Shown here one piece after another: positions 2,913-49,129 of a DNA stretch of 64,000 nt. Below the pieces are notes generated by a model, which worked only from the letters and a program-made list of their open reading frames with translations, was not told the origin of the DNA and searched no databases. Made by a program: the position numbers and the translations under genes. Within the stretch, counting starts at the first letter, position 1; the number at the start of each line of letters is the position of its first letter. Source of the stretch: Clostridiales bacterium. Its GTDB lineage: Bacteria > Bacillota > Clostridia > Oscillospirales > Oscillospiraceae. Where the stretch lies: positions 1,961-65,960 of the forward strand of contig JALFOM010000084.1 in assembly GCA_022782265.1 (NCBI GenBank). Direction: 5' to 3'.

Positions 2913-3836
2913 ATGAAAAAAACGATCATTACAGCGCTGATGTGCCTGGCGCTGGTCTCTGCCATGCCCACGGCGGCCTATGCCATGGAGCTTGTGGTAG
3001 GCGGGCAGCCGATGGGAATACAGCTCAATACCGACGGGGTAATGGTGGCAGGGCTGGCCTCCATAGAGACGGCAGAGGGCAAGAAGTCCCCCGCCGCCGA
3101 CGCAGGCTTTCGCCAGGGCGACATCATTATCAAAATCGGCGAGAGAAAAGTGAGCTGCGCGGCGGATTTTATTGACGCGGTGGCGGCGCTGAACGGGCAG
3201 AGCGCCCCGGTCACGGCCCTGAGAGACGGCAAAACGGTGGAGATGAGGGTGCAGCCGGTACTGTCCGGCGAGAACCAGTGGATGCTGGGCATGTGGCTTC
3301 GCGACGGCATATCGGGTATTGGCACTTTGACCTTTTGCGATCCGGACTCCGGGATATACGGCGCGCTGGGCCACAGTGTGAATGACGAGGACAGCGGCGT
3401 GATCCTGCCTCTGGGCGACGGCAGCATCAGCAGCGCCCAGATTGTGGGCGTCGTGCCCGGATCTCAGGGCGCGCCGGGTGAGCTGACCGGTGCCACCGAC
3501 ACCGGCAAGATCCTGGGCAGCGTGGAAAAGAACACGGAAAAGGGGATTTACGGTCACAGCTATGTGTCCCTGGGCGGCAAGGTGGTGGAGACCGGCAAGA
3601 TTCAAACCGGCAGCGCCTCGATTATTTCCACCGTCAGCGGCAGCGAGCCGAAGGAATACGCGGTGGAGATCAACCGGGTGTACAGTGAAAGCGGCTGTAC
3701 CCGGGTGATGCTGACCGTCACAGACCCTGAGCTCTGCGCCGCCACCGGCGGCATCGTACAGGGCATGAGCGGCAGCCCTATCCTCCAGAACGGCTGCCTG
3801 GTGGGTGCGGTGACCCATGTGTCAGTACCCACATGA
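2913..3836 (+). CDS. spoIVB: SpoIVB peptidase (S55), 5' portion of a gene split by an insertion; reads into the element and stops after 4 foreign codons
   Basis: Signal/TM N-terminus, PDZ-like GFRQGDIIIKIGERKV, catalytic His context GALGHSV and Ser context GMSGSPILQNG. The ORF ends ...GAVTHVSVPT* directly after the 17-bp junction repeat. The conserved tail is found at 13290-13388. Confidence 0.9.
   Translation: MKKTIITALMCLALVSAMPTAAYAMELVVGGQPMGIQLNTDGVMVAGLASIETAEGKKSPAADAGFRQGDIIIKIGERKVSCAADFIDAVAALNGQSAPVTALRDGKTVEMRVQPVLSGENQWMLGMWLRDGISGIGTLTFCDPDSGIYGALGHSVNDEDSGVILPLGDGSISSAQIVGVVPGSQGAPGELTGATDTGKILGSVEKNTEKGIYGHSYVSLGGKVVETGKIQTGSASIISTVSGSEPKEYAVEINRVYSESGCTRVMLTVTDPELCAATGGIVQGMSGSPILQNGCLVGAVTHVSVPT
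3806..3822 (+). repeat. left junction core (attL) TGCGGTGACCCATGTGT
   Basis: Identical 17-mer at 13289-13305. The flanking bases differ on both sides (g/a before, c/t after). Confidence 0.9.
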
Positions 3837-4006
3837 TACCCACCAGAAAGAAAGCGTTTCCTCACACAAAATACATAGTCACGGAAAGCGAGAATACGGA
3901 AAAAGCAACAAGAGCGCGGCGTCACGGCTGCGCTCTTGCTGCTTCATTTGTCTGATTGCATGATTATGACCGCAAAAGACATACAATAATTTTTTGGATT
4001 TAATAG

Positions 4007-4035
4007 TTGACAAAAGCAACGAATTTTAGTAATAT
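4007..4035 (+). promoter_or_regulatory. sigma-A type promoter of the two-gene cassette
   Basis: TTGACA (4007-4012), 17-nt spacer, TAATAT (4030-4035), 28 nt upstream of the ATG at 4064. Confidence 0.55.
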
Positions 4036-4063
4036 AGGCGCAGAAAAATATTGGAGGTTTTGC

Positions 4064-4687
4064 ATGAACCATTTCGATCTGAAATCTGAACTGATTACGC
4101 CCGCTGTTGCTCTGAAGCTTGTCCCTGCATTTGTTTCCGCTTATGAACTTGCCGCCTCTGCGGCTAACGAAATTGAGTTTCTCGGTGGAGAACTGCGGTA
4201 TCAGATTCTTCCTCATCTCCGTAACTGGGCGGTCGAGTTTGAGCTGGACAGGCGGGCACGCTTGGGCTTGATTCCGTTTTCCAGTAGCTTTGAGAGCAAC
4301 TCAAGGAACAATCACAGGCATCTTGAACTTCGGAAAGGCAATGTACTTCTTACGATAAGCCAGACGCATCACTGCATCGATCTTCCGCGTGATTGCGTGT
4401 TTCGTAACGAGCACTGCGAAAATGGGCAGTATTGCTTGGAAGGCTTCGAGGAAAAAGTTGACACCGCCAGCAAAAACATTTATGCTATCCTTACGCATGG
4501 TCAGGGCAAATCTGCTCCGGGCTTCATCCTCTGTGGCGTCCCTGCTCCGGATATGAAAAAGTGGTCCCAGGCGGTCAACCTTTATGATGTTGTTCGCAAT
4601 CTTGAGCTCGTAGACGATGCGCCTGTTACCGAAGAAATCCACCTGGGGTACAGAGAGTCCGTGAAAAAGAATATTACCAATGCTTGA
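4064..4687 (+). CDS. hypothetical protein, 207 aa, no family recognised
   Basis: ATG at 4064 preceded by GGAGG with 7-nt spacing (the track start at 4007 is a TTG inside the promoter). This is a 624-nt open frame in comparatively AT-rich DNA. It lies 16 nt upstream of the XRE-ImmA gene, so an operon is likely. Confidence 0.7.
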   Translation: MNHFDLKSELITPAVALKLVPAFVSAYELAASAANEIEFLGGELRYQILPHLRNWAVEFELDRRARLGLIPFSSSFESNSRNNHRHLELRKGNVLLTISQTHHCIDLPRDCVFRNEHCENGQYCLEGFEEKVDTASKNIYAILTHGQGKSAPGFILCGVPAPDMKKWSQAVNLYDVVRNLELVDDAPVTEEIHLGYRESVKKNITNA

Positions 4688-4703
4688 TGGGAGGCTTTAG
4701 ACA

Positions 4704-5876
4704 ATGTCTAGGCAATCCAAAATTGCTCAAAAAGAGCCTTTGGTGCCGGAAAGGATACGAGAAGCTCGGCTTGCAAGGGGCATGTCGGCAATAGATCTAG
4801 CTAGCGCAATTGGAGTATCCAGGCAAGCAATTTCAAAATATGAGCTTGGAAGTGCCGAGCCTAGTTTTGCAGTCCTTGAGGCTCTTTCTAATACCCTTAG
4901 AATGCCCATTTCTTTCTTTTCAAAACCACCTGAGGCCGGAGCAAACCGGGGAACGACTTTTTACCGCAGCTTAAAAACCAACGCGGCACGTGCAAAAGAC
5001 ATTATGGCGACCAAGAGTGAGTGGGCTTCAGAAATAGCTAGTTTTGTAGAGCGAGGAATAGTTTTTCCTGATGTGGATATCCCGAGCCTTCCCGAAGAAT
5101 TCAATAATGCAGAAGCATTTTCTGACGAGGAAATAGAAGATATTGCGGAGTATGTTCGACGCTGCTGGAAGTTAGGGAATGGCCCTATCCCTAATATTTC
5201 GAGGACACTTGAGGCCCACGGGGTTGTAATCTCCACCATAAAAACCGGATGCGAAGAAACTGACGCTTGTTCATGCTTCATAGATTCTCGCCCATTCATT
5301 TTCCTGGATACACAAAAGGAGTGCGCCGTACGAACAAGATTTAATCTCTCACATGAACTTGGGCACCTTATTTTGCATGGCGGGATCTCGCAGAGTGACA
5401 TTGCAGACAAAAAAGAGCAAGATCGAATTGAAAAAGAAGCAAACCATTTTGCTTCGTGTTTTTTGCTCCCAAGAGAATCCTTTCTGCGAGATATCCGCTC
5501 AACATCGCTGACTTCCTTCCTGCCGTTGAAGAAAAAATGGAAGGTTTCTATTCAAGCTATGGTATATAGGTGCAAGGAACTTGGCGTTTTTTCAGATAGC
5601 CAGATGATCTATATACAAAAACAAATATCTGCAAGGCGCTGGAGAAAAAACGAACCGTTTGATGATGAGTGGCCCTGTGAAGAACCAATCGTACTAAGGA
5701 CTGCGGTCAATATGCTTGTTGACCGAGGAGACTTTTCTAAAGAGGATTTTAGTTCAATCCTTAGGTTCCCTGCGTTAGATATCGAGGAGATTTGCTCTTT
5801 GCCAGAAGGATTTCTAAGCGAAAGGGAACAGGATATGCCAATAATCATTGATTTTGCCACAAAAAGGCAGATCTAA
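4704..5876 (+). CDS. XRE-family HTH fused to ImmA/IrrE (COG2856-type) zinc metallopeptidase
   Basis: 390 aa. N-terminal HTH: IREARLARGMSAIDLASAIGVSRQAISKYELG. HEXXH motif: SHELGHLILH. Downstream EKEANHFASCFLLP supplies the third-ligand region typical of the ImmA/IrrE family. A C-terminal extension of roughly 100 aa follows. Confidence 0.85.
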   Translation: MSRQSKIAQKEPLVPERIREARLARGMSAIDLASAIGVSRQAISKYELGSAEPSFAVLEALSNTLRMPISFFSKPPEAGANRGTTFYRSLKTNAARAKDIMATKSEWASEIASFVERGIVFPDVDIPSLPEEFNNAEAFSDEEIEDIAEYVRRCWKLGNGPIPNISRTLEAHGVVISTIKTGCEETDACSCFIDSRPFIFLDTQKECAVRTRFNLSHELGHLILHGGISQSDIADKKEQDRIEKEANHFASCFLLPRESFLRDIRSTSLTSFLPLKKKWKVSIQAMVYRCKELGVFSDSQMIYIQKQISARRWRKNEPFDDEWPCEEPIVLRTAVNMLVDRGDFSKEDFSSILRFPALDIEEICSLPEGFLSEREQDMPIIIDFATKRQI

Positions 5877-5905
5877 CCGAAACAATACAATATTGTTGTC
5901 CTTTA

Positions 5906-5937
5906 GGGAAGCATGTTTAAGAAGCATGCTTCCCTTT
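5906..5937 (+). terminator. rho-independent terminator closing the two-gene cassette
   Basis: gggaagcatg ... catgcttccc stem followed by tttt. Confidence 0.65.
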
Positions 5938-5985
5938 TCGCGTAGAAGCTATTCCAATTTAATCACAAGGAGGCGGACAGAACGC

Positions 5986-6336
5986 ATGAGAGCACTGGTT
6001 GCTCAAGAAGGGAGCTTTTCTTTTTACCGGGTTCCCCGGCAGCTTATCAAGGGGCGGGAGTATCGTCCGCTGTCGCCCGCTGGGAAGCTGCTGTTTGCCC
6101 TGCTTCTCGACCGCGTGAGCCTGTCCGTAAAAAACGGCTGGCGGGACGGGGAGGGGCGGACATATGTGTATTACGCCGTCGCGGAGATCTGCGAGGACTT
6201 CGGCTGCAGCCGCGTCACCGCCGGAAAGCTGCTTTCGGAGCTGGAGCGGATCGGCCTGATCGAGCGAAAAAAGCAGGGCCAGGGCAAGCCGGATCGGATT
6301 TGCGTCCTGCAATTTTGCGCCAAACCGGACTTCTAG
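5986..6336 (+). CDS. replication initiator A (RepA_N) N-terminal domain only, probable remnant
   Basis: ATG at 5986 after AAGGAGG. The sequence FYRVPRQLIKGREYRPLSPAGKLLFALLLDRVSLSVKNGWRDGEGRTYVYY...GLIERKKQGQGKPDRI matches my memory of the Firmicute RepA_N winged-helix domain. At 116 aa it lacks the usual C-terminal half. Confidence 0.7.
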   Translation: MRALVAQEGSFSFYRVPRQLIKGREYRPLSPAGKLLFALLLDRVSLSVKNGWRDGEGRTYVYYAVAEICEDFGCSRVTAGKLLSELERIGLIERKKQGQGKPDRICVLQFCAKPDF

Positions 6337-6365
6337 ACTTCCCAAAAGGAAACTTCTAGACTTCC
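6329..6365 (+). repeat. tandem iteron-like repeats ACTTCTAGACTTCC x2 (23-bp register)
   Basis: Copies at 6329-6342 and 6352-6365. The related 11-mer CCCGAAGTCTG occurs at 6371-6381 and 6516-6526, and an AT-rich stretch lies at 6390-6500. Confidence 0.45.
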
Positions 6366-6539
6366 GCTTTCCCGAAGTCTGGAGGTAAAAATCTTTTACA
6401 TCAAGAAACCAAAAACTTATGCCCTAATAAGACTGATAGAAAGAAACTGATAAAATTATACTGAGTGATCTATTCATCCATCTATCTATCATTACTACTA
6501 ATCTGCGCGTCAAAACCCGAAGTCTGAAAGGCGCAAATG

Positions 6540-6556
6540 TGTCTCACCGTGAGACA
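6540..6556. repeat. 17-bp palindrome TGTCTCAC-C-GTGAGACA (copy 1)
   Basis: Read directly. Followed by agttttctctttt. The flanks aaatg...(a)gtttt are shared with copy 3. Confidence 0.85.
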
Positions 6557-6598
6557 AGTTTTCTCTTTTCATGCGACAAAAGGAGAAAATACGCACCG

Positions 6599-6664
6599 TG
6601 TTAAGCAAGTATGGCATTTGTTAAACACAAACGCCCTTGTTAGGGGATGACCCCTAAAACCCCG
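6599..6664 (+). repeat. left arm of a ~65-nt imperfect inverted repeat
   Basis: Contains AAGCAAGTATGGCATTTG (6603-6620), the exact reverse complement of 10652-10669. Similarity extends through caaacgcc and a ttagggg...cctaa hairpin. Confidence 0.75.
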
Positions 6665-6717
6665 CGCAGCGGAACAAACAGACGCCTTTTGGAGAAACAC
6701 CGAACCAAGATGTGCCG

Positions 6718-6746
6718 TTGACAATTAGCGTAATTATGCATATAAT
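6718..6746 (+). promoter_or_regulatory. consensus sigma-A promoter of the Phd/RelE operon
   Basis: TTGACA (6718-6723), 17-nt spacer, TATAAT (6741-6746). AAGGAGG RBS before the ATG at 6771. Confidence 0.65.
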
Positions 6747-6770
6747 AATGCTAAGCAAGGAGGTGGCGAG

Positions 6771-7058
6771 ATGCCAAATATTCGTCCTGTTTCCGATCTG
6801 AGAAATCATTTCGCTGAGATTACCAAAGACGCTCAGCTCAGCGGTGAGCCGATCTTCCTGACCAAGAACGGCGTCGGCTCCATCGTTGTCATGAGCATGG
6901 AGAGCTACGAGCAGAACCGCTATGACAGCATGGTCTACGACAAGCTGCGCGAGGCGGAGCTGCAGGCTGCCAGCACGACGGAGCGTTTGAGCCATGCCGA
7001 TGTTATGGCGAAAGCGCGTGCGTTTCTGAGCGGTGCGGAGGAGCAAAAGCGTGCATAA
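6771..7058 (+). CDS. type II antitoxin, Phd/YefM family
   Basis: 95 aa. The N-terminus MPNIRPVSDLRNHFAEITKDAQLSGEPIFLTKNGVGSIVVMSMESYE is the Phd/YefM fold signature. It overlaps the downstream toxin gene. Confidence 0.85.
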   Translation: MPNIRPVSDLRNHFAEITKDAQLSGEPIFLTKNGVGSIVVMSMESYEQNRYDSMVYDKLREAELQAASTTERLSHADVMAKARAFLSGAEEQKRA

Positions 7059-7359
7059 GATCGTTTATTTGCCGCTGGCGGAGAGCGACTTGATGGACGC
7101 GCTGGGCTATATTGCCTACACGCTGGACGCGCCAAAAGCCGCCCGCGATCTGCTGGCCGAGTTTGACGAGACGGTACAGCGCATCGCGGAGTTCCCCTAC
7201 GCCCACGAGCTTTACCGGACAGACCGCCCGATGAAAGACGAGATCCGCAAGGTGCCGGTCAAGAACTATGTGCTCTATTATGCCGTCTTTCAAGACCGCG
7301 TAGAGATTCGCCGCTTTCTCTACGGCAAGAGAGACAGAAGCAGAATCGATGAAGAATAA
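7051..7359 (+). CDS. type II toxin, RelE/ParE family
   Basis: GTG at 7051 overlaps the antitoxin stop by 8 nt. About 102 aa with a DEIRKVPVKNYVLYYAVFQDRVEIRRFLYGKRD ParE/RelE-like C-terminus. Confidence 0.8.
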   Translation: MHKIVYLPLAESDLMDALGYIAYTLDAPKAARDLLAEFDETVQRIAEFPYAHELYRTDRPMKDEIRKVPVKNYVLYYAVFQDRVEIRRFLYGKRDRSRIDEE

Positions 7360-7528
7360 TGCAACACAGAAGATGAAGCTGCCCGCCGTCCCCGTCCCGG
7401 ACATGAGCAATCTCACGAAGGAGCAGTTGAAAGCGGAAATCGAGAAGGGCTTTGCTGACACTGCCGCCGGACGAGTAACGCCCGCTGCCGAGGTGTTTGC
7501 CGAGCTGCGGGGGAAAGACACGCAGTAA
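7349..7528 (+). CDS. small antitoxin-like ORF (59 aa)
   Basis: ATG at 7349 overlaps the RelE stop. The C-terminus LKAEIEKGFADTAAGRVTPAAEVFAELR resembles the tail of RelB/ParD-type antitoxin-like proteins (from memory). Below the ORF-track size cut-off. Confidence 0.4.
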   Translation: MKNNATQKMKLPAVPVPDMSNLTKEQLKAEIEKGFADTAAGRVTPAAEVFAELRGKDTQ

Positions 7529-7538
7529 ACCCATAATC

Positions 7539-7555
7539 CGTTTCACCGTGAAACG
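7539..7555. repeat. 17-bp palindrome CGTTTCAC-C-GTGAAACG
   Basis: Read directly. The flank aatccgtttcac is shared with the copy at 10579-10603. Confidence 0.8.
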
Positions 7556-7583
7556 AATTTACAAACGAATAGCTATCAACCGG

Positions 7584-7610
7584 AAACTTGTCTCACCGTG
7601 AGACAAGTTT
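7584..7610. repeat. 27-bp palindrome AAACTTGTCTCAC-C-GTGAGACAAGTTT (copy 2), terminator-like and possible oriT inverted repeat
   Basis: 13-bp perfect arms followed by ccttttttc. It sits immediately upstream of the mobC RBS. Confidence 0.8.
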
Positions 7611-7630
7611 CCTTTTTTCATGGAGGTGTT

Positions 7631-7939
7631 ATGAGAGAACGCAATCATTTTATCGGCCTTTGGCTAAATAATGAGGAATACGCCCATCTGCGAGAGCAAT
7701 GCGAGATCACGGGTTTACCAACCAGCGTACTGATCCGCAATGCCCTCGCTGGGGTACAGCTCCGGCAAAGACCACCCGGCGAATACGCGGGCCTGCTGCG
7801 GGCTCTATCGGCCATCGGCAACAACGTCAACCAAATCGCGCACTGGGCCAACGCCAAAAAGAGCATCCAAGAGGCGGAGATCCGGCAGGCGGTTCTGCTG
7901 GCAAACAAGGCGTGGGAGTTGGTAAAGGAGACGTTGTAA
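7631..7939 (+). CDS. mobC: plasmid mobilisation relaxosome protein MobC (orphan, no relaxase follows)
   Basis: ATG at 7631 after GGAGG. The sequence LNNEEYAHLREQCEITGLPTSVLIRNALAG...LSAIGNNVNQIAHWANA matches the MobC RHH plus IGNNLNQIAR motif. Confidence 0.85.
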   Translation: MRERNHFIGLWLNNEEYAHLREQCEITGLPTSVLIRNALAGVQLRQRPPGEYAGLLRALSAIGNNVNQIAHWANAKKSIQEAEIRQAVLLANKAWELVKETL

Positions 7940-7942
7940 ATG

Positions 7943-7959
7943 TGTCTCACCGTGAGACA
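7943..7959. repeat. 17-bp palindrome TGTCTCAC-C-GTGAGACA (copy 3)
   Basis: Starts 4 nt after the mobC stop. 7938-7965 is a direct repeat of 6535-6562 with one mismatch. Confidence 0.85.
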
Positions 7960-8114
7960 GGTTTTGACCGAGCTTCTGATGTCACTCAAAGCTCAAACTC
8001 TTCTTATTTGCGCTGTCGTGATATAATAAAGAAAAAACTTTTCCTGTTTTTGTGACACTTTGCTCAAAAAATGGATTTATATAAGTGAGGGCCCTTAAAC
8101 AAAGGAGACGAGGT

Positions 8115-8687
8115 ATGAACGACAGAGATATAGTCAATTTATACTGGCAGCGTTCAGAGCAGGCCATAGCGGAAACCGAGCGGAAATACGGGAGTTACTG
8201 CCACATTATCGCATATAACATCCTCGAAAACAGCGAAGATTCCGAGGAGTGCGTCAATGATACCTGGATGAGCGCATGGAACGCAATGCCGGACAAGCGC
8301 CCGGACCGGCTCAGCCCCTTCCTTGCCCGGATCACACGCAACTTCGCTCTGACAAAGATCGTCCGTCGCACGGCGAAGAAACGGGGCGGCGGTGAAGCAG
8401 AGCTTGCGCTGGAGGAGCTGGACGAGTGTCTTTCCTCCGGCTACGATCTGGAAAAGGAAATCGAAGATCGGGAGCTGAGTCGCGCCATAGACGAATTTAT
8501 AGGGCAGCTCGGTGAAGAAGAACAGCTTGTATTTGTCAGCCGGTATTGGTTCGTGGCGACCGAGCGGGAGATCGCGGAAAAGCTGGGCCTGAGCCGCAGT
8601 GGCGTCGCCGCCATGCTGAAAAGGACAAGAGGCAAGTTGAAGACATACCTGTTGATGGAGGGCTTATGTACAATTCGGAACGAATGA
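8115..8687 (+). CDS. sigma-70 family (ECF-like) RNA polymerase sigma factor, element copy
   Basis: ATG at 8115 after AAAGGAG. The region-2-like segment is IVNLYWQRSEQAIAETERKYGSYCHIIAYNILENSEDSEECVNDTWMSAW and region 4 is REIAEKLGLSRSGVAAMLKRTRGKL. By eye it is more than half identical to the chromosomal copy at 23649-24206. Confidence 0.85.
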   Translation: MNDRDIVNLYWQRSEQAIAETERKYGSYCHIIAYNILENSEDSEECVNDTWMSAWNAMPDKRPDRLSPFLARITRNFALTKIVRRTAKKRGGGEAELALEELDECLSSGYDLEKEIEDRELSRAIDEFIGQLGEEEQLVFVSRYWFVATEREIAEKLGLSRSGVAAMLKRTRGKLKTYLLMEGLCTIRNE

Positions 8688-9736
8688 TGAAAGCCGTTGG
8701 AGACATTTCCGATGATAAGATCGAGAAAACCGGCCGCGCGCTGGGCTATCAAAAAGAGAGACACAGCATGTCTCGCGCCCCCGTTCGGATGGGGAGATGG
8801 CTGTCCATTGCTGCGGTGGTTGCGCTGATCCTCGCGCTGGGTGTGACGGCCTATGCAATCTATACGCACTGGTCGCGAGGCATGGAGCAACGACTTCCCG
8901 CCACAGAGGAAGAAAAAGAACTGGCAGAGCAGAGCGGCCTGTCCGACACTTCCCATACTGTCAGCGCCACAGCCAACGGCGTGACGATCTCTGTGGAGCA
9001 GACGATCATCGACGGAGATTCCGCCGAGATTGCCCTGCGGATCGAGGGTTGGCAGCTTGACCGGGAACAGGAACTTGACGCCACCGTTTGGGGCTGGATG
9101 CCTACCTTCAACGGAGAAGGAGCGCCTGCGATGGGCGGCAGTTTCGTGGAAGACCGCGACGCAAATGACCGTGTTTTCATTATTGCGGCTGACGGCTCGA
9201 TGGAATTCGATATCTGGGCCAGAGCAGGAGACAAGCTAGGTACACTTTCCGGAAAAGAAATCCGTATTTGCATTGAAAGTTTAGGCGTTGGAGGTCTTAA
9301 AAGCGAGTATCAGCCGTTGGTGGAAGGCCCCTGGGAACTCGTTTGGACACCCAGTAGCAACAGCGAACTGCTGACCGTACAGCCTGATGCAGACCTCGGT
9401 GATACCGGGATCAAGTTGGTTTCCGCGGAGGTTGGCCCGATTTCTGCGAAGGTGGCGCTACAGCTTCCCGAACTCTGGAAGGGCTACGAAACCTTGGAGC
9501 ACCACGATCTCCAACTCGTGGGCGTGCGGCTGACCGACGGGACGGTGCTGACCAACATCTTTGGGCCGCCCACGCAGGAGGGCTACGCGGATATCGACAA
9601 TTTGATCCTTGAGCTGGACTACTCTTCGCATCAGATCCTCCAGCCGGAGCAGGTGGAGGCACTGATTTTTGCCAGCAACTTCCCTTGGGCGAGAACATTG
9701 ACAGACATCGATCTGATCATTATTCCAATCAAATAG
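8666..9736 (+). CDS. single-pass membrane protein co-translated with the sigma factor (putative anti-sigma factor)
   Basis: ATG at 8666 within GGAGGGCTTATG, the same overlap context as 24200. N-terminal cytoplasmic segment, TM helix WLSIAAVVALILALGVTAYAI, then a ~270-aa extracytoplasmic domain. Confidence 0.6.
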   Translation: MYNSERMMKAVGDISDDKIEKTGRALGYQKERHSMSRAPVRMGRWLSIAAVVALILALGVTAYAIYTHWSRGMEQRLPATEEEKELAEQSGLSDTSHTVSATANGVTISVEQTIIDGDSAEIALRIEGWQLDREQELDATVWGWMPTFNGEGAPAMGGSFVEDRDANDRVFIIAADGSMEFDIWARAGDKLGTLSGKEIRICIESLGVGGLKSEYQPLVEGPWELVWTPSSNSELLTVQPDADLGDTGIKLVSAEVGPISAKVALQLPELWKGYETLEHHDLQLVGVRLTDGTVLTNIFGPPTQEGYADIDNLILELDYSSHQILQPEQVEALIFASNFPWARTLTDIDLIIIPIK

Positions 9737-9760
9737 TAAGTATTGGAACACATAGAGATC

Positions 9761-9949
9761 ATGATCATAGAACAAGAACGAAAGTCATTATGGCTCCCAT
9801 GTCCAAAGTGTGGAGCCAGGACAAAGATCAAAATCTATGAGGACACCGTACTTCTGAATTTCCCCTTATACTGTACCAAGTGCAAGGAAGAAACCAAACT
9901 CGGCGTGATAAAATTCAAGATCGTAGTTAGCGACGAGCCAGACGCTTAA
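9761..9949 (+). CDS. cysteine-rich KTR domain (zinc-ribbon) small protein
   Basis: CPKCG...NFPLYCTKCK...EPDA pattern, as I remember for the Cys-rich KTR family on Firmicute mobile elements. The start is uncertain (TTG 9743 or ATG 9761). Confidence 0.7.
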   Translation: MIIEQERKSLWLPCPKCGARTKIKIYEDTVLLNFPLYCTKCKEETKLGVIKFKIVVSDEPDA

Positions 9950-9954
9950 AGCGC

Positions 9955-9990
9955 AGAGCCTGCTACTCCGTGAGTGGAGAAGCAGGCTCT
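9955..9990 (+). terminator. hairpin after the KTR gene
   Basis: agagcctgct ... agcaggctct (10-bp arms) followed by ttctgtcgtt. The T tract is weak. Confidence 0.45.
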
Positions 9991-10208
9991 TTCTGTCGTT
10001 ATTGGGCATTCAGCACAGGAGTTTTCCCTTCCCCCCGCAGGGCTGTTGGAGAAGCGTGTTTGAAATACCGCTGATTTGGCCTTATCAGTGAGATTCGGCA
10101 CCGTTGCTATAGCTTCGGTTTCGTTTTGAGATCAGGCACCGTCTATGTTCAAAAGCGAAAAGATAGTATTGCTTATTGACCTACACATTCAGAAAGCGGA
10201 GGACAGAT

Positions 10209-10580
10209 ATGTACAGCTTTCATTCTGAAAACAACATGTCCGGCGTGACGCCGGAGGAGATTGCGCGGCTGCTGCGCAGCATCGGAGCATCCGGCAGATT
10301 GGTCGGCTTCTATTACACTGTCTATATCGTGTACACGATCCTGCAAAAGCCGGATGAGTATTTCTGGATCACCAAATGCGCCTACCCGGAAACGGCCCGG
10401 TATTTCAAGGTCAGTCCGTCCTCCGTGGAGCACACGATCCGCACGCTGATCGCTTCGGTGTGGAATCGCCGCAATCATTCCGACATCAACCGCGTGGCCG
10501 GGATCGAGCTAGAGAAGCCGCCCACTAACAGCGAGTTTATCGATATACTGGTCGCCTATCTCCGCTACGGTGTGGATTAA
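10209..10580 (+). CDS. stand-alone Spo0A C-terminal (DNA-binding effector) domain protein, no receiver domain
   Basis: ATG at 10209 after GCGGAGG with 6-nt spacing. The sequence ITKCAYPETARYFKVSPSSVEHTIRTLIASVWNRRN...EKPPTNSEFIDILVAYLR parallels the Spo0A segment ...[32 protein letters not shown]...KPTNSEFIA that I recall. Confidence 0.8.
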   Translation: MYSFHSENNMSGVTPEEIARLLRSIGASGRLVGFYYTVYIVYTILQKPDEYFWITKCAYPETARYFKVSPSSVEHTIRTLIASVWNRRNHSDINRVAGIELEKPPTNSEFIDILVAYLRYGVD

Positions 10581-10603
10581 TCCGTTTCACCATGAAACGG
10601 ATT
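10579..10603 (+). terminator. hairpin AATCCGTTTCA-cca-TGAAACGGATT after the Spo0A_C gene
   Basis: 11-bp arms and a 3-nt loop, followed by ttcgc. Member of the GTTTCAC/GTGAAAC palindrome family. Confidence 0.55.
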
Positions 10604-10610
10604 TTCGCAT

Positions 10611-10675
10611 CGGGTGTTAGGTGGCGCCCCTAAAAGCGGCGTTTGAACTATCAAATGCCATACTTGCTTATAACA
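10611..10675 (-). repeat. right arm of the ~65-nt imperfect inverted repeat
   Basis: CAAATGCCATACTTGCTT (10652-10669) is the exact reverse complement of 6603-6620. Extended similarity was aligned by hand. Confidence 0.75.
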
Positions 10676-10732
10676 TGCGGCTTCCGTCGAGAAACGGATA
10701 AAAGGATTAAATAATGTAGTAATCATTCCGTA

Positions 10733-10960
10733 CTATCTCGAACGAAAAGAGGCCACTTTTCCCGATACTTGCGGTAAAATGGTGTTAAACCAAATAGAGC
10801 TGGCAGATACAATGGTGCCGAATAGAATCAAATGTCCGGCTATACGCTCGGGAAGAAATCTGCCGCAAACGACTTCTTTTTGTCGGGACTTGATTTCTTT
10901 TGCGAATTTTCGTTTTTTCAGCGCCTGATTTTGTTTTAGATATATGGAGAGAAGTCCCAA
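10733..10960 (-). CDS. possible small membrane protein (75 aa)
   Basis: TTG start preceded by GAGGAAGG with about 5-nt spacing. A basic N-terminus is followed by one hydrophobic helix, IAGHLILFGTIVSASSIWFNTIL. No homology recognised. Confidence 0.3.
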   Translation of the reverse strand: MGLLSIYLKQNQALKKRKFAKEIKSRQKEVVCGRFLPERIAGHLILFGTIVSASSIWFNTILPQVSGKVASFRSR

Positions 10961-11276
10961 AGGACACCTTCCTCGAAAACCGAATAGGGCAGGCAGATAC
11001 GTTCTGCTTGTGGGGAGCCGGGCAGCGGGTGCGCCAGGATGCCGATCAACCGAGAGGTGAAGATATCAGGCTGAGCGAGCAACACCGCGCTGTATGCAGC
11101 CGATGGCAAGGCTGAGGGCCACGATCCGCGAGCAGAGATAATGATACCTACGTTGATGGCACGTCACAGAGTCAAACGTCCCGCCATGAGCATGGAGGGA
11201 GGCACGAAACGATCCTACGGAGCGGCCCGCCCCGCCGCCGTCTGACCCTCGCCTTTGAAAAACCGTGAATCTTACG

Positions 11277-11313
11277 ATCCGCACTACACAAGAGTGCGGA
11301 TTTTGTCTTTTTT
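11277..11313 (+). terminator. strong rho-independent terminator in a gene-poor stretch
   Basis: atccgcact-acacaag-agtgcggat followed by tttgtctttttt. No convincing upstream CDS. Confidence 0.7.
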
Positions 11314-11318
11314 AGTCG

Positions 11319-11345
11319 AAATGTGTTTCACGGTGAAACACATTT
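11319..11345. repeat. 27-bp perfect palindrome AAATGTGTTTCAC-G-GTGAAACACATTT
   Basis: 13-bp arms. The half sites GTTTCAC/GTGAAAC equal parS half sites, but one extra central base is present. Confidence 0.85.
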
Positions 11346-11402
11346 TTCAAGCCCAAATTTGGCATACTAAACCATATCCACACACGAAAGGAGCGGGAGC
11401 TT

Positions 11403-11582
11403 ATCATCGTTTCCACGATTAAAAACGAAAACGCCGTGGTGCAGATCCACGACGATTATATTGAGGATATCGACGAGAACGCGGCGCGGGTGAAGGAGAT
11501 ATTGACCAAAGCCCGCAAGCGCCGCAAGGCGGCCGCGAAGCCCGCCGCCGCACAACAAAAGTCTTACGCGCCGCAGCTATAA
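11403..11582 (+). CDS. small basic-tailed ORF directly upstream of the recombinase, lacking a canonical start codon (RDF candidate or decayed gene)
   Basis: AAAGGAG at 11387-11393 lies 9 nt before an in-frame ATC at 11403. The first canonical start is GTG at 11436. Translation: IIVSTIKNENAVVQIHDDYIEDIDENAARVKEILTKARKRRKAAAKPAAAQQKSYAPQL*. A short hairpin plus T-run follows at 11570-11597. Confidence 0.35.
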   Translation: MIVSTIKNENAVVQIHDDYIEDIDENAARVKEILTKARKRRKAAAKPAAAQQKSYAPQL

Positions 11583-11620
11583 TCTGCGGCCTTTTTCTAT
11601 AAATTGCCACGCCTGAAAAT

Positions 11621-11649
11621 TTGACAGGCTATGGCCGATTTGAGATAAT
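11621..11649 (+). promoter_or_regulatory. sigma-A-like promoter of the recombinase gene
   Basis: TTGACA (11621-11626), 17-nt spacer, GATAAT (11644-11649). AAAGGAGG RBS, then ATG at 11671. Confidence 0.5.
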
Positions 11650-11670
11650 ATCGACAGAAAGGAGGCCCCC

Positions 11671-13212
11671 ATGGAGCAATATCTTGAATATCTCCGTAAA
11701 TCTCGCTTTGACCGTGATTATCTGGATTTGAGTGTGGAGGAAACGCTGAAACGGCACCAGGAGATTCTGGACAGACTGGCGAGAGACAGAGGATTCTATA
11801 TTGCGAAGGTGTATCGGGAGGTCGTGTCCGGCGAGTCCATCGCCGCCCGGCCCGAGGTACAGAAGATGCTGGAAGAAGTCTCTTCCGGGATCTATACCGG
11901 GGTGCTCGTTGTCGATGTGGAGCGTCTGGCCCGCGGCAACAGCGCGGATCAGGCATACATCAGCCAGATCTTTCAGTTCTCCGACACCAAGATCATCACC
12001 CCCGCCAAGACCTACGACCCGACGGACGAATTCGACCAGGAGTATTTCGAGTTCGGCCTGTTCATGAGCCGGAGAGAGTACAAGACCATCAACCGACGCC
12101 TTGTCAGAGGCCGTCAGAGCTCCGCCAGTGAAGGAAAATACGTCGGCAGCATCGCGCCCTATGGCTACGACCGGGTGAAGCTGCAGGGTGAGAAGGGCTA
12201 TACGCTCGAACCAAATCCGGCAGAGGCGGAGGCTGTGCGGCGGATGTTCGAGCTGTACGTCCGGCGGCAGGGTACGAAAATGATCGCCAATGAGCTGAAC
12301 GACCGCAAAATCCCCACGCGCCACGGCGGGAAGTGGGATGCCTCGACGGTGGGCAACATCCTCATAAACCCCGTCTATCTGGGCAAGATCAAGCGCGGCT
12401 ACGTCAAAGAGACCAAGCGCCTGGACGAGCGGGGCAATGTGGTGTCCAGCTACAGGCATTGCAAGGACGTGGAGGACTACGACCTGTACGAGGGCCGCCA
12501 CCCCGCGCTGATCGACGACGCGCTCTTTGAAAAAGCGCAGAAGATACGCAAGGAAAACTACGTCGGCCCGAAGGTAAAAAAGCAGTACGAGCTTGTCAAT
12601 CCCTTCGCGGGCGTGATGGTCTGCGCGGAGTGCGGAAAGCCTATCGGCCGCAAGGCCTCCTCGAAGAACCACCCCAACCCGCCCCGCGTGGCCTGTACCA
12701 ATCCTCACCACTGTCACAACCGCTCCGCGAGCTTTGCGCTGGTGGAAACGGAAATCCTGAGCGCGCTGCGGAGCTGGCTGGACGGCTACAGGATCAAGCT
12801 GGACACCGTGGGCTTTGCGGAGGATATAGCGGACTGTCGGCGGCAGCTGGAACGGATCGCAGCGGAGCGGGAGAAGCTGAAAGCGCAGCTTGACCGGGCC
12901 TACACACTGGTGGAGCAGGGCGTTTACAGTTTGGAGGTCTTCGGGGAACGGTGCGACAAGCTGACGCGAGAGCTGAATGATCTGCAGGAGCAGCAGGACG
13001 CCGCAGAGCAGAGTTTGGCGCAGTATGAGGCCGACGAGAGCAGCCAGCAGGAGATCATTCCGCAGACGGAGACGCTCCTGGCAAGCTACGACGAGTTGAC
13101 CGTACAGGAGCGCAACGAGCTCTTGAAGACCATCCTTTACAAGATTGAATACTACCGGGGAGAGGATGGGATCGTGTCCATTGACCTGTATCCCAGGCTC
13201 CCTAAAGCATAA
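11671..13212 (+). CDS. large serine recombinase (resolvase/invertase N-domain, recombinase domain, zinc ribbon, coiled coil)
   Basis: 513 aa. The catalytic-Ser context YLRKSRFD resembles the YLRRSRQD I recall for SPbeta SprA. Recombinase domain: GYTLEPNPAEAEAVRRMFELYV...WDASTVGNILINPVYLGK. Zinc ribbon: CAECGKPIG...CTNPHHCHN. A C-terminal coiled coil is present. Confidence 0.95.
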   Translation: MEQYLEYLRKSRFDRDYLDLSVEETLKRHQEILDRLARDRGFYIAKVYREVVSGESIAARPEVQKMLEEVSSGIYTGVLVVDVERLARGNSADQAYISQIFQFSDTKIITPAKTYDPTDEFDQEYFEFGLFMSRREYKTINRRLVRGRQSSASEGKYVGSIAPYGYDRVKLQGEKGYTLEPNPAEAEAVRRMFELYVRRQGTKMIANELNDRKIPTRHGGKWDASTVGNILINPVYLGKIKRGYVKETKRLDERGNVVSSYRHCKDVEDYDLYEGRHPALIDDALFEKAQKIRKENYVGPKVKKQYELVNPFAGVMVCAECGKPIGRKASSKNHPNPPRVACTNPHHCHNRSASFALVETEILSALRSWLDGYRIKLDTVGFAEDIADCRRQLERIAAEREKLKAQLDRAYTLVEQGVYSLEVFGERCDKLTRELNDLQEQQDAAEQSLAQYEADESSQQEIIPQTETLLASYDELTVQERNELLKTILYKIEYYRGEDGIVSIDLYPRLPKA

Positions 13213-13288
13213 GTTTGTATCCCCCAGTCACGGGCCGCTGTGCGTCCCGCGACAGCCCCCTTTAGGCAAGGGGGCCCTGTAGCCATCA

Positions 13289-13305
13289 TGCGGTGACCCA
13301 TGTGT
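13289..13305 (+). repeat. right junction core (attR) TGCGGTGACCCATGTGT
   Basis: Identical to 3806-3822. Confidence 0.9.
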
Positions 13306-13388
13306 TTGTCAACGATCCCACCAGGGGCTACGGCATCAGCATCCAGGACATGCTGGAGACAGCGGAGATTGAGGACAAGGCGGCGTAA
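13290..13388 (+). pseudogene. spoIVB: 3' fragment of spoIVB (last 32 codons plus stop), separated from its 5' part by the element
   Basis: My translation is AVTHVFVNDPTRGYGISIQDMLETAEIEDKAA*. The first five codons duplicate 3807-3821. There is no start codon or RBS of its own. Confidence 0.85.
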
Positions 13389-41758: not shown

Positions 41759-41939
41759 GTTCGATCGCCACCTCCTCCTATAAAATTGAGCTATACATAA
41801 CTCGCGTTTTGAAATTATAGCAAATTAAGTTCCGAAAATCAAGAGTTTTTTTCAAAAAAAAGTTTATTTTTTTCACTTGTTATTTCTTCTGCCCTTTTCG
41901 GAAAAAATACACAATATATAGTTTTCTGTGAGGTGCAGT

Positions 41940-42785
41940 ATGGCAATAAATGGCAGGACAGATATGGCCTCTGAGGCCCATCGGGATTATAAAAAGGGAA
42001 AGGCACTCCCTGGTGTGTCAGCAAAAGAGGAAACGCTGAACGGTTTTCCCCTGTATTCCGTTGAGATCAAAAATGAAGATGGCGCACAGGCTTTGAGAAA
42101 GCCGGTAGGCAAATACTATACACTGGAGCCGGAGCGTTTTTTTGAGCGCGGCTCTGATTCCTTTGCTCCAGCCGCTCAGGCCGTGGCGCAGCTGATAAAA
42201 AACTGCTCTGATGGTTTGTCTCCCTCTTCCGTTCTTGTGGCCGCTCTGGGCAATCCGGATATCACACCGGACGCTCTTGGCCCTCTAACCGCCTCCCACC
42301 TTATCGTGACACGCCATCTGAAGCATTCCGGCGACCCGATTTTTTCTTCCTTCCATTCTCTCGCCCTTTGCCGTACCGGTGTGCTTGGGACCTCCGGTAT
42401 TGAAAGTGCGCTGCATATCAAAACCCTCTGTGCTTTGCTCAAGCCTGAGCTTGTCATCGCCGTGGACGCTCTGGCCGGGTCTGATCCGGACCGTCTCTGC
42501 CGGACCATACAGGTAAACAGTGCCGGTGTGGCTCCCGGCTCCGGGGTTGGCAACGACCGGGAGGAATTGAGTCTGGATTACCTGGGTGTTCCTGTTGTTG
42601 GTATAGGCGTGCCCACGGTAATTGATTCTGAGCTTTTCGGCAGCGGAAGCAATACGCATATGTTTGTCACGCCCCGGAATATTGACAGTCTGGTTCGCAG
42701 CGCGGCCAGGCTGATCGGATACGGCATTGATCTGGCGGTACACGACGGGCTTTCTATTGGTGACATTGATATGCTGATCGGCTGA
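41940..42785 (+). CDS. gpr: GPR endopeptidase (spore germination protease)
   Basis: Start at MAINGRTDMASEA (41940). The segments LGNPDITPDALGP and VIAVDALAG...IQVNSAGVAPGSGVGN are GPR/A25 family signatures. Confidence 0.85.
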   Translation: MAINGRTDMASEAHRDYKKGKALPGVSAKEETLNGFPLYSVEIKNEDGAQALRKPVGKYYTLEPERFFERGSDSFAPAAQAVAQLIKNCSDGLSPSSVLVAALGNPDITPDALGPLTASHLIVTRHLKHSGDPIFSSFHSLALCRTGVLGTSGIESALHIKTLCALLKPELVIAVDALAGSDPDRLCRTIQVNSAGVAPGSGVGNDREELSLDYLGVPVVGIGVPTVIDSELFGSGSNTHMFVTPRNIDSLVRSAARLIGYGIDLAVHDGLSIGDIDMLIG

Positions 42786-46471: not shown

Positions 46472-47779
46472 ATGAACTCCGTAAACGATATATGGGATGA
46501 AATTGTAAAAATCCTTTCAAAGCAGCTCACACCAACAGCAATCAGCACCTGGTTTTCCGACTGCACCCCTGTGGAGATTGACGACTGCAAGCTGGTGCTG
46601 CATACCACAACAGATTTTAAGCGCAGCATCATCATATCCCGCTTCGGCGATACCATAAAGGCGGCCCTTTCCGATCTGTTCTCCTGTGATTTTGACATTA
46701 TGGTTCTGGCCGGTGATGAGATCAACGACTTTTCCATCAAGAAAAAAGCGGAAAATTCCCTGCCGGAAATGGAAGGCTACACCTTTGACCGCTTCATCGT
46801 GGGAAACTCCAATAAATTTGCCCACGCGGCAGCCCTGGCCGTTGCGGAAAGACCAGGCGTCACATACAATCCCCTGTTCATTTACGGCAACTCCGGCCTG
46901 GGAAAGACCCATCTGCTCCTTGCTATCGGCCAGGAAATCCATGAGAAAGACCCCACAAAGAAAATTGCCTATCTGAAAGGCGACGAGTTTACCAATCAGC
47001 TGATCCGGGCAATCAAGGACGGTACAGGCGAAGAGTTCCGCACCAAATACAGGAATGTAGACCTTTTCCTTGTGGACGATATCCAGTTCATTGCCGGCAA
47101 GCAGCAGACCCAGAACGAGTTTTTCCACACCTTCAATAACATCTATGAGGCCGGACATCAGATCGTCATCACCTCGGACCGTCCGCCTCTGGAGATGTCC
47201 CTTCTGGACGACCGTCTGCGCACCCGCTTTGAAGGAGGCCTGATGGCGGATATTCAGCCCCCTGACCTGGAGACCAGGATGGCCATTATCCGCAATAAGG
47301 CGGCCCAGCTGGGGCTTCTGCTGTCCGACGAAGCGGTGGAATACATCGCGGAAAACATCACAGCCAATATCCGGCAGCTTGAGGGCGTAATCAAGCGTCT
47401 GACAGCTTACAAAGAGATTCTGGATGATGTGATCACCATCGATTCCGTGAAACGAGCCATTAAAGATGTGATAAAAATCGGCACCTACATCCCCACTCCG
47501 GATATCATCATCAAAGAGACGGCGAAGTATTACTCGCTGAAGGAAGAAGACCTGCGGGGTCAAAACCGCTCCAAAAACACCGCCATGGCCAGACAGGTCT
47601 CCATGTATCTCATACGCTCGCTGACAAATCTCTCTCTGAAAGATATTGGTACCGAATACGAGGACAGAAACCATGCCACAGTCCTGGCCTCCATCCGGAA
47701 GGTGGAAGACCTGCTGAAAACCGACAGCTCCATGGCCGGTATCGTCAGGGACATTACCTCCAATATCAATTCCAATTAA
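46472..47779 (+). CDS. dnaA: chromosomal replication initiator protein DnaA
   Basis: 435 aa. Contains FDRFIVGNSN, Walker A GNSGLGKTHLL, Walker B LFLVDDIQF and the domain IV HTH. Confidence 0.97.
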   Translation: MNSVNDIWDEIVKILSKQLTPTAISTWFSDCTPVEIDDCKLVLHTTTDFKRSIIISRFGDTIKAALSDLFSCDFDIMVLAGDEINDFSIKKKAENSLPEMEGYTFDRFIVGNSNKFAHAAALAVAERPGVTYNPLFIYGNSGLGKTHLLLAIGQEIHEKDPTKKIAYLKGDEFTNQLIRAIKDGTGEEFRTKYRNVDLFLVDDIQFIAGKQQTQNEFFHTFNNIYEAGHQIVITSDRPPLEMSLLDDRLRTRFEGGLMADIQPPDLETRMAIIRNKAAQLGLLLSDEAVEYIAENITANIRQLEGVIKRLTAYKEILDDVITIDSVKRAIKDVIKIGTYIPTPDIIIKETAKYYSLKEEDLRGQNRSKNTAMARQVSMYLIRSLTNLSLKDIGTEYEDRNHATVLASIRKVEDLLKTDSSMAGIVRDITSNINSN

Positions 47780-48013: not shown

Positions 48014-49129
48014 ATGAAATTTACCTGTGAGAAATATCTGCTCCAGTCCGCATGTGCTATCGCTTCCAGAGCGACAGCCTCAAAAAGCCCTATCCCGGCT
48101 CTTGAAGGTCTGCTGATTCAGGCAGATACGGATGTGAGAGTTACCGGCTACGACCTGAAAGAAGGCATATACACCAATATCGGCGCGGACATTGAACAGA
48201 CCGGTTCTGTTGTCGTTGGCGCACGGCTTTTCGGCGAGATGATCCGCCGCCTGCCGGACGGCATCGTCAGCATCAGCGCAGATGACAACGAAAACATCAA
48301 TGTAAAATGCGGAAAAAGCGAATTCAATTTCATGGGAATCAGCGCTGAGGATTATCCGGAAATGCCCAGTGTGGACGGTCTGAACCATGTGGAGTTGCCC
48401 CAGAAGCTGCTGAAAAACATGATCAACCAGACAATTTTTGCCGTTTCGGACAGCGATGTGCGCCCTATCTATACCGGCACTCTGTTTGAGATCGAAGACG
48501 GCGAGCTGACTTTGGTGTCCGTTGACGGCTATCGTCTGGCAAAGCGCTGCGAGAAGATCGAAGGGAAAGATGTGGAAAACTGCTCCTTTGTGGTCCCCGG
48601 CTCCGCCCTTTCCGATATCGAGCGCATCTGCGGAGACACGGAGGACAGTGTGAGCATAGCTGTAGGCGCAAAGCACATCTCCTTTTCCATTGGCGAGACC
48701 GTGGTGGTCACCCGCAGGCTGGAAGGGGAATTTCTCAATTACCGTAAATCCATTCCCGACAAGTTCCGCTTTACCGTTCAGGTGGAGAGGGCGGAATTCA
48801 TGTCCACCATCGACCGCGTAGCCCTGATCGTCAGTGAAAAGAACAGCAGCCCCGTAAGACTCAGCTTCAACGACGGCAGCATCGACTGTCTCTGTGTCAC
48901 ACCCATCGGCAAGGCGGAGGATATCTGCACCTGCGAAGGCAGCGGCGAAGGACTGGAGATCGGCTTTAACGACCGTTATCTGATGGATGCCCTGAAGGCT
49001 GCCTCCGGCACGGATAAGCTGAATATCTGCCTGAATACCGCCTCCTCTCCCTGCGTGATCGACGCGGCGGACGGCAGCGGCACCTTTACCTATATGATCC
49101 TTCCCGTGCGTCTGCGCGCGGGCGACTGA
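48014..49129 (+). CDS. dnaN: DNA polymerase III beta sliding clamp
   Basis: 371 aa with canonical position and length. N-terminus: MKFTCEKYLLQSACAIASRA. Confidence 0.95.
   Translation: MKFTCEKYLLQSACAIASRATASKSPIPALEGLLIQADTDVRVTGYDLKEGIYTNIGADIEQTGSVVVGARLFGEMIRRLPDGIVSISADDNENINVKCGKSEFNFMGISAEDYPEMPSVDGLNHVELPQKLLKNMINQTIFAVSDSDVRPIYTGTLFEIEDGELTLVSVDGYRLAKRCEKIEGKDVENCSFVVPGSALSDIERICGDTEDSVSIAVGAKHISFSIGETVVVTRRLEGEFLNYRKSIPDKFRFTVQVERAEFMSTIDRVALIVSEKNSSPVRLSFNDGSIDCLCVTPIGKAEDICTCEGSGEGLEIGFNDRYLMDALKAASGTDKLNICLNTASSPCVIDAADGSGTFTYMILPVRLRAGD

Follow-up and report, generated by a model that had tools for sequence, protein, structure and literature searches.

A probable RosmerTA-type toxin-antitoxin module at the attL end of an integrative element that splits spoIVB in a Clostridiales bacterium

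The DNA under study is a stretch of 64,000 nucleotides from a Clostridiales bacterium (assembly GCA_022782265.1, contig JALFOM010000084.1, positions 1,961 to 65,960 of the forward strand), hereafter the window, and all positions are counted from its first letter. Close to its left end two neighbouring genes, named here gene A and gene B, form a compact cassette at the attL end of an integrative element. An original prediction, made from the letters alone, had described the cassette as a self-contained toxin or defence module, in which an orphan protein encoded by gene A would be controlled by the product of gene B, a fusion of an XRE helix-turn-helix (HTH) domain with a COG2856-type zinc peptidase acting as the antitoxin or regulator of a variable partner. 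The features of the cassette are the following.

3903..3944, no strand assigned: hairpin located past attL and ahead of the cassette promoter; arms of 18 nt, 89% complementary, spacer of 6 nt
4007..4035, + strand: cassette promoter of sigma-A type, TTGACA-17 nt-TAATAT, 10/12 match, from the promoter scan
4053..4057, + strand: ribosome-binding site GGAGG of gene A, read from the sequence
4064..4687, + strand: gene A, 207 aa, ATG at 4064, candidate RmrT-type toxin of PADLOC family PDLC03933
4427..4447, + strand: codons of the gene A motif Q122-Y-C-L-E-G-F128, a candidate clamp-binding-like motif in a predicted disordered loop
4689..4694, + strand: ribosome-binding site GGGAGG of gene B, within the 16-nt spacer, read from the sequence
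4704..5876, + strand: gene B, 390 aa, candidate RmrA-type antitoxin/regulator
5352..5366, + strand: HELGH codons (H217-H221) of gene B, zinc-binding/catalytic motif, aligned with the HELGH of the verified RmrA
5905..5939, + strand: intrinsic-terminator-like hairpin followed by TTTT, with a 14-bp stem and a 3-nt loop

The organization proposed earlier was borne out: the two genes lie on the same strand, are separated by 16 nt, and are bracketed by a TTGACA-17-TAATAT site at 4007-4035 and a hairpin at 5905-5935. The promoter scan by itself was not above chance, with 4 sites found for 2.7 expected. The 80 nt upstream of gene A were then aligned for 11 diverged lineages, the proteins of which are only 30-80% identical, and GTTGACA was found to be invariant in all of them, with a nearly invariant TAAAAT/TAATAT -10 box 17 nt downstream. 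Because of this conservation across lineages we consider the site at 4007-4035 as real, despite the chance-level scan. Gene A contains, ahead of gene B, another promoter-like site, TTGACA-17-TATGCT (4458-4486); it is not conserved in the other lineages and is therefore probably a chance match. On the 3' side, the stem at 5905-5935 is followed by TTTTCG, and the corresponding 74-nt stretch has a folding energy of -25.8 kcal/mol (z = -5.2), a value that none of 200 shuffled sequences reached. This hairpin was not listed by the consensus terminator scan, and its T-tract has just 4 T. The inverted repeat at 3903-3944, between the truncated spoIVB gene and the cassette promoter, is followed on the minus strand by TTTTT and may act as a terminator or insulator of the cassette against spoIVB read-through.

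The base composition sets the cassette apart, as had been claimed. Its GC content is 0.453 (0.492 for gene A and 0.441 for gene B), compared with 0.537 for the rest of the element and 0.59 and 0.56 for the host flanks. It is the lowest-GC stretch of 1,931 nt in the 64-kb window, and only 0.16% of the sliding windows are equally low. The claimed position at the attL end was also found, the promoter starting 185 nt inside the left junction of the element.

The Pfam analysis of gene B revealed an HTH_3 domain at residues 18-71 and a Peptidase_M78 domain at residues 170-291, with the HELGH motif at 217-221, in agreement with the fusion originally described. The XRE HTH is encoded by nucleotides 4755-4916 and the M78 domain by nucleotides 5211-5576; beyond it, the C-terminal region spans about 100 aa. 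Compared with the PADLOC models for RmrA, gene B gave a best E-value of 1.7e-135 over its full length (residues 5-377), and it is 31% identical over 351 aa (E=1e-42) to the experimentally verified RmrA of E. coli OLC-716, the E..A[ND].FA..FL.P and HELGH motifs of the two proteins being aligned. Gene B thus shows the M78/ImmA-type zinc peptidase with HExxH by which a RosmerTA antitoxin is recognized, together with the N-terminal XRE HTH that such antitoxins usually have. It falls in PHROG 2439 and also matches the PADLOC models for capP (E=2e-23) and capH (E=1e-10), as well as the CapP structure (PDB 7t5t). The NCBIfam model for the spr1629 family gave E=5e-65 and 220 bits; since this score is below the family cut-off of 335, gene B is not an spr1629 equivalog. 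A distant homologue of known structure is PDB 9vzy chain A, a 393-aa HTH and M78 fusion (E=3e-5, residues 18-295), of which no mention was found in the literature searched.

Gene A had been described as an orphan matching nothing, and this description did not hold. Gene A matched four PADLOC RmrT models, the best being PDLC03933 (E=3.1e-33), and it is therefore also the adjacent, co-oriented and small RmrT-family partner expected in a RosmerTA system. A word-index search gave just 18 close clusters. The profile search of 1.84 billion representatives gave 740 relatives at E<=1e-3, nearly all of 200-230 aa, distributed among Firmicutes, Proteobacteria, phages and plasmids. No match was obtained in Pfam, NCBIfam or PHROGs, either with the single sequence or with 60 family members. 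Profile and structure searches with gene A had been proposed in the original prediction. The PDB sequence-profile search with the A family gave no match, and none of the PDB matches of the gene A model in Foldseek was convincing, the best having E=0.29. In BFVD, one borderline match was an unnamed viral protein, A0A516MBF7 (E=2e-3).

The AlphaFold2 model of gene A (predicted local distance difference test score, pLDDT, of 81; predicted template modelling score, pTM, of 0.81) is alpha/beta. It begins with two long helices and three strands, continues with a short helix and a disordered loop, and ends in another three strands and a C-terminal helix. The loop, residues 114-135, has a pLDDT below 50 and is predicted to be disordered. 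No transmembrane or hydrophobic segment was detected (Kyte-Doolittle maximum of 1.35 over a 19-residue window), and the product is predicted to be a soluble alpha/beta protein. In the alignment of 151 family members, R114 is invariant, and conservation reaches 80% or more at Y27, N79, T97, P108, R109, Q122, Y140, H145, G146, G158, P160 and W167, of which N79, T97, R109, Y140 and H145 are near-invariant. A PD-(D/E)xK nuclease, which would call for an alpha-beta-beta-beta-alpha-beta core with conserved D and (D/E)xK residues, was also considered: Foldseek gave weak scattered matches only (PDB E>=0.29), and this candidate was rejected because no Asp or Lys is conserved in the family.

The string RNNHRH at residues 81-86 of gene A, which had been noted as fitting the minimal HEPN Rx4-6H pattern, is indeed present, and R81-x4-H86 is shared by the window protein and those closely related to it. 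That gene A would be a HEPN-type RNase toxin acting through this motif is nevertheless highly improbable. Among the 151 family members R81 is less than 60% conserved and H86 is 76% conserved, with Y or F substituting, and in the alpha/beta model the string lies in a loop and a beta-strand, instead of in a helical bundle. No HEPN match was obtained for gene A in the Pfam or PDB searches. The HEPN reading, which calls for a conserved Rx4-6H in an all-alpha-helical domain, fails because R81 is unconserved and the predicted fold is alpha/beta.

The neighbourhood census that had been suggested for gene A homologues was performed on 34 loci, and in all 34 an A-family gene was found directly upstream of an HTH-M78 gene of about 380-400 aa. 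In the 26 loci that were obtained by searching with A or proteins close to it, A is followed by the B homologue on the same strand (26/26). Four distant A relatives (about 25-30% identity) have the same A-B order, one being on a phage-like contig and another adjoining a DNA methylase/Vsr gene. In the reverse direction, three B homologues at 41-42% identity were taken, and an A-family gene was directly upstream of each of them (3/3); these are from Desulfofundulus, from the end of a Paenibacillus prophage and from Novispirillum, beside the GajA/GajB-like genes of Gabija. The pair is also present in phages, cultured ones among them (Lacticaseibacillus phage R24.2, Enterococcus phages and Escherichia phage Tritos), and on a Zymomonas plasmid, where it adjoins an Abi (abortive infection) gene. 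Its prophage copies have the integrase on one side and the lysis genes on the other, with HicAB as a neighbour. When gene A itself was the tblastn query against phage and plasmid records no match was obtained, the matches being given by a distant family member used as query. Public records label both genes 'hypothetical protein' or 'XRE family regulator'. According to these comparisons the promoter travels with the A-B pair, which moves as a unit among unrelated elements. At the Novispirillum itersonii locus (L034, 23-7232), the pair comes directly after a GajA-like gene (AAA_15/OLD-TOPRIM) and a UvrD-helicase gene and before a large serine recombinase gene and HicAB; this locus forms a small defence island on a different element that also bears a recombinase.

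RosmerTA was described as a zinc-peptidase antitoxin associated with a toxin of unknown function, for which a delta-rmrA construct was not obtainable (Millman et al. 2022). Since gene A matches RmrT, gene B matches RmrA, and gene B is 31% identical to the verified RmrA, we assign the cassette, with a probability of about 0.78, to the RosmerTA-type toxin-antitoxin and anti-phage (abortive infection) modules, carried as cargo at the attL end of the 9.5-kb integrative element. The constant pairing in the census agrees with this assignment, and the autonomy of the module is supported by its conserved promoter, by a GC content unlike that of the remaining element and by the HEPN+GmrSD, TIR or restriction-modification cargo that sister elements have a few genes away. 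The toxin or defence module originally predicted, with the fusion as antitoxin of a variable partner, thereby receives a name. The system as such is already described; what is new is an additional member, the toxin of which comes from a different family that has been catalogued by adjacency.

Like the RosmerTA system of E. coli OLC-716, the cassette has two co-oriented genes and an RmrA made of an XRE HTH and an M78 domain, of about 370-390 aa; the predicted models of the two toxins share the order of secondary structures, with a QLxL-type motif in the disordered loop of both. Unlike in E. coli, the host is a spore former of the class Clostridia, the carrier is a serine-recombinase element, and the toxin has no detectable sequence similarity to the E. 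coli RmrT. An ImmA-domain antitoxin and a toxin of no known family, encoded on a mobile element, are also found in RmrTA of Gordonia phage Kita, the anti-phage activity of which is narrow (PMC10440598). The toxin of Kita localises to the membrane, which it depolarises, whereas gene A has no hydrophobic segment. In the same study the ImmA-domain node was a hub antitoxin for many unrelated RmrTs, and the toxin gene came first in 58% (Ernits et al. 2023, PMC10440598).

Several observations weigh against the RosmerTA assignment. The OLC-716 system is an experimentally verified anti-phage system, while the A family is known from sequence alone, and the PADLOC RmrT models that it matches rest on adjacency to RmrA. 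Homology of the toxins was not detected, gene A and the verified RmrT giving E=0.76 by BLASTP and a probability of 0.1-0.6% by hhalign; this dissimilarity does not bar membership, because the family definition allows unrelated toxins. Other RosmerTA systems that were tested protect against phages, only narrowly. In one of the 26 loci, a metagenomic prophage (L016), the B homologue is split by a frameshift (6093-7231) and the toxin gene is intact, which is unexpected for an essential antitoxin; either the assembly is in error here, or the toxin may not be lethal when its partner is missing. All the element copies found by lookup with the exact RepA_N protein carry the cassette, so that a role specific to the element is possible; this lookup, which is biased to near-identical elements, found no copy without the cassette. 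Finally, a palindromic operator was searched for at the window promoter and none was evident. In distant family members an inverted pair, GTTGACAA/TTGTCAAC, flanks the -35 and +1 regions, the inverted copy TTGTCAAC being just past the -10 in four distant lineages (L026, L028, L029 and L031), where the pair is a plausible putative operator for the HTH of B. It is degenerate or absent in the clade of the window.

For the RosmerTA module we propose the following scheme. A single transcript starts at the conserved promoter, codes for toxin A and then antitoxin B, and ends at the hairpin, as the sequence and its conservation show. B would keep A inactive and probably represses its own promoter through the XRE HTH; this autorepression is inferred, because the inverted pair is degenerate or absent in the window clade. 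A trigger such as phage infection or DNA damage would act through the M78 zinc-peptidase domain or through loss of B, and free A would then halt growth. The logic of this protease step is likely given by ImmA/ImmR of ICEBs1, IrrE/DdrO of Deinococcus and CapP/CapH of CBASS (cyclic-oligonucleotide-based anti-phage signalling systems), where an XRE repressor is likewise paired with a COG2856/M78 metallopeptidase. Contrary to the cassette, where the two are fused and accompanied by a toxin-like partner, these are separate proteins that control excision, repair and CBASS genes, respectively. Our best guess for the target of A, of low confidence and by analogy with RipA, would be the sliding clamp DnaN, reached through the Q-x-x-L-x-x-F motif of the disordered loop. 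The module may also help to retain the element by addiction.

Two other explanations of the cassette were weighed, and both are less likely than a RosmerTA defence module. Gene B could be a fused ImmR/ImmA-like immunity switch that controls the excision or transfer genes of the element, with A as an accessory or passenger, an alternative already raised in the original prediction. ICEBs1 keeps immR-immA at its attL end, where the cassette also sits; nothing else in the element was recognized as an obvious repressor, and the cassette was present in every element copy found. We regard a switch of this kind as unlikely, given that the pair, together with its own conserved promoter, is present in unrelated prophages, phages, a plasmid and chromosomal defence neighbourhoods, and that a strong hairpin separates it from the downstream genes of the element, from which it also differs in GC content. 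A is moreover kept with B at every locus checked, hence is no dispensable passenger, and repressor and protease are fused here but are separate proteins in ImmR/ImmA.

The pair could also be mainly an addiction module, holding the element in the chromosome by post-segregational killing and having no anti-phage role. It is a toxin-antitoxin-like pair on a mobile element that also has Phd/ParE, COG2856-Xre fusions with toxins were listed among the toxin-antitoxin-like modules (Makarova et al.), and RipAB has a non-defence physiological role in pneumococcus. Related RosmerTA systems protect against phages, however, and relatives of the pair occupy prophage moron positions or lie beside Gabija, restriction-modification and Abi genes, a pattern typical of defence genes. 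Addiction and defence roles are in any case compatible, and an exclusive addiction role appears to us improbable, about as much as the immunity switch.

The loop of gene A, which is otherwise variable, was examined with regard to the clamp-binding-like motif. The consensus of the bacterial beta-clamp-binding pentapeptide is QL[SD]LF, and QLxLxL is a further form; such motifs are short, of the type Q-hydrophobic-x-hydrophobic-aromatic, and occupy exposed, flexible segments. Of the 151 family members, 81% have Q122, 93% have L, F, M or I at position 125 and 74% have F128; the +1 position is hydrophobic, an aromatic residue comes after 0-2 residues past +3, and acidic residues are next. The motif has a pentapeptide form Q[LIM]x[LFMI]F in 28 of the 151 members (QLSLF, QISLF, QLTLF), a hexapeptide form, for example QLRLDF, in 27, and a heptapeptide form in 28, including the window copy QYCLEGF, which does not match the strict clamp patterns. 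The verified E. coli RmrT family was modelled with a pLDDT of 79, and its model starts with helices and three strands, after which come a short helix, the disordered loop (136-157) and another three strands. This RmrT has QLKLDL at residues 143-148, in the disordered loop, and QLxLDL is found in 15/15 of the sequences having this segment. As A0A516MBF7 was not among the BFVD matches that Foldseek gave for the verified-RmrT model, a fold shared by A and the verified RmrT rests only on the order of secondary structures. A third toxin, of the Clostridioides phage phiCD418, is encoded beside an RmrA homologue and has QLSFF at 129-133; it matches neither toxin profile. In composition-matched shuffles the strict motif occurred anywhere in 3-10% of the cases per protein, and because of this chance rate the recurrence of the motif in two sequence-unrelated RmrT families is suggestive and no proof.

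A parallel is found in RipAB of Streptococcus pneumoniae (Spr1630/Spr1629), a toxin-first operon with an XRE-ImmA antitoxin, in which RipB antagonises RipA (PLoS Genet 2025, PMC12795458). DnaN is an interaction partner of RipA, and the suppressor mutations lie in the hydrophobic pocket where clamp-binding motifs dock (PMC12795458), which fits the motif in the loop of gene A. RipAB differs from the cassette in being chromosomal, ClpX-dependent and competence-linked (PMC12795458). The RipA sequence is known here from its primer-derived termini only (MLNQDLFDSLE... and ...PRIEKQEGQK), and none of the retrieved proteins matches them. Under the clamp hypothesis only, SocAB of Caulobacter is also comparable, SocB blocking replication by binding the hydrophobic pocket of the beta clamp DnaN; it has no sequence or architectural relation to the cassette, and SocA is a ClpXP adaptor. 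We therefore put forward, tentatively and as a possibility that we hold to be well short of probable, that the RmrT toxins with this fold, in the gene A family, in that of the verified E. coli RmrT and perhaps in the phiCD418 family, are sliding-clamp poisons, whose QLSLF, QLxLxF/L or QxxLxxF would dock in the DnaN pocket. No mention of a clamp-binding-like motif in Rosmer toxins was found in the literature searched, the RipA paper included.

The element that carries the cassette is 9,483 bp long and bounded by copies of the 16-bp direct repeat GCGGTGACCCATGTGT. The gene upstream, at 2913-3836, codes for SpoIVB and stops at position 195 of the 210-position Peptidase_S55 profile; the absent C-terminus (…THVFVNDPTRGYGISIQDMLE…) was found at 13306-13388. 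Since joining 3822 to 13306, repeat to repeat, restores a SpoIVB of 330 aa, spoIVB is interrupted by the element, and precise excision would restore the 330-aa protein. SpoIVB is made in the forespore. From left to right, the element carries the cassette, RepA_N, Phd/ParE, MobC/NikA, a sigma factor with a DUF4179 protein, Cys_rich_KTR, a Spo0A_C-only protein and, at the right end, a large serine recombinase. Its other features, and three host genes of the window, are listed below; strands are stated for the two repeats only.

3807..3822, + strand: attL core, left copy of the 16-bp direct repeat GCGGTGACCCATGTGT, with the identical 16-mer at 13290-13305
6337-6770: window copy of the cargo slot, empty, about 430 nt
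6771-7359: Phd/YefM antitoxin and ParE toxin, overlapping genes, second toxin-antitoxin pair of the element
8085-8687: sigma-70-like factor, element regulator
8546-9736: DUF4179 protein, overlapping the sigma gene, possible anti-sigma factor
9743-9949: Cys_rich_KTR protein, element gene
10176-10580: protein with only the Spo0A C-terminal DNA-binding domain, element regulator
11671-13212: large serine recombinase, right end of the element
13290..13305, + strand: attR core, right copy of the 16-bp direct repeat GCGGTGACCCATGTGT, just upstream of the spoIVB 3' piece
41928-42785: gpr, in the window
46472-47779: dnaA, in the window
48014-49129: dnaN, in the window, the host's own clamp gene

In sister elements, the slot between RepA_N and Phd/ParE is occupied by a 717-aa protein, by HEPN and GmrSD_N, or by a TIR_2 protein, and one sister copy has an N6_Mtase/Eco57I block further along (sister-element cargo: L001, 10710-12863; L006, 2942-4671 and 6635-8940; L008, 2902-3933). 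In this small element, the slot has the look of a hotspot for defence genes. Further along the window, the GC content is low at 46-48 kb, in what is probably the origin region; with dnaA and dnaN also in the window, the window therefore adjoins oriC.

The value of the assignment lies mainly in annotation, with one further RosmerTA system being recognized behind generic public labels, and with a family of A toxins that is sizeable (740 representatives) and strictly paired. The presence of the motif in two sequence-unrelated RmrT families, together with the interaction of RipA with DnaN, provides a concrete and cheap hypothesis for the action of Rosmer toxins, and of all the findings it is the clamp-binding-like motif alone that could make bench work on the A family worthwhile. 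If the hypothesis is true, docking would arrest host and phage replication or bring the toxin to the replisome, and the single RipA-DnaN result would extend to a general mechanism of a widespread defence family.

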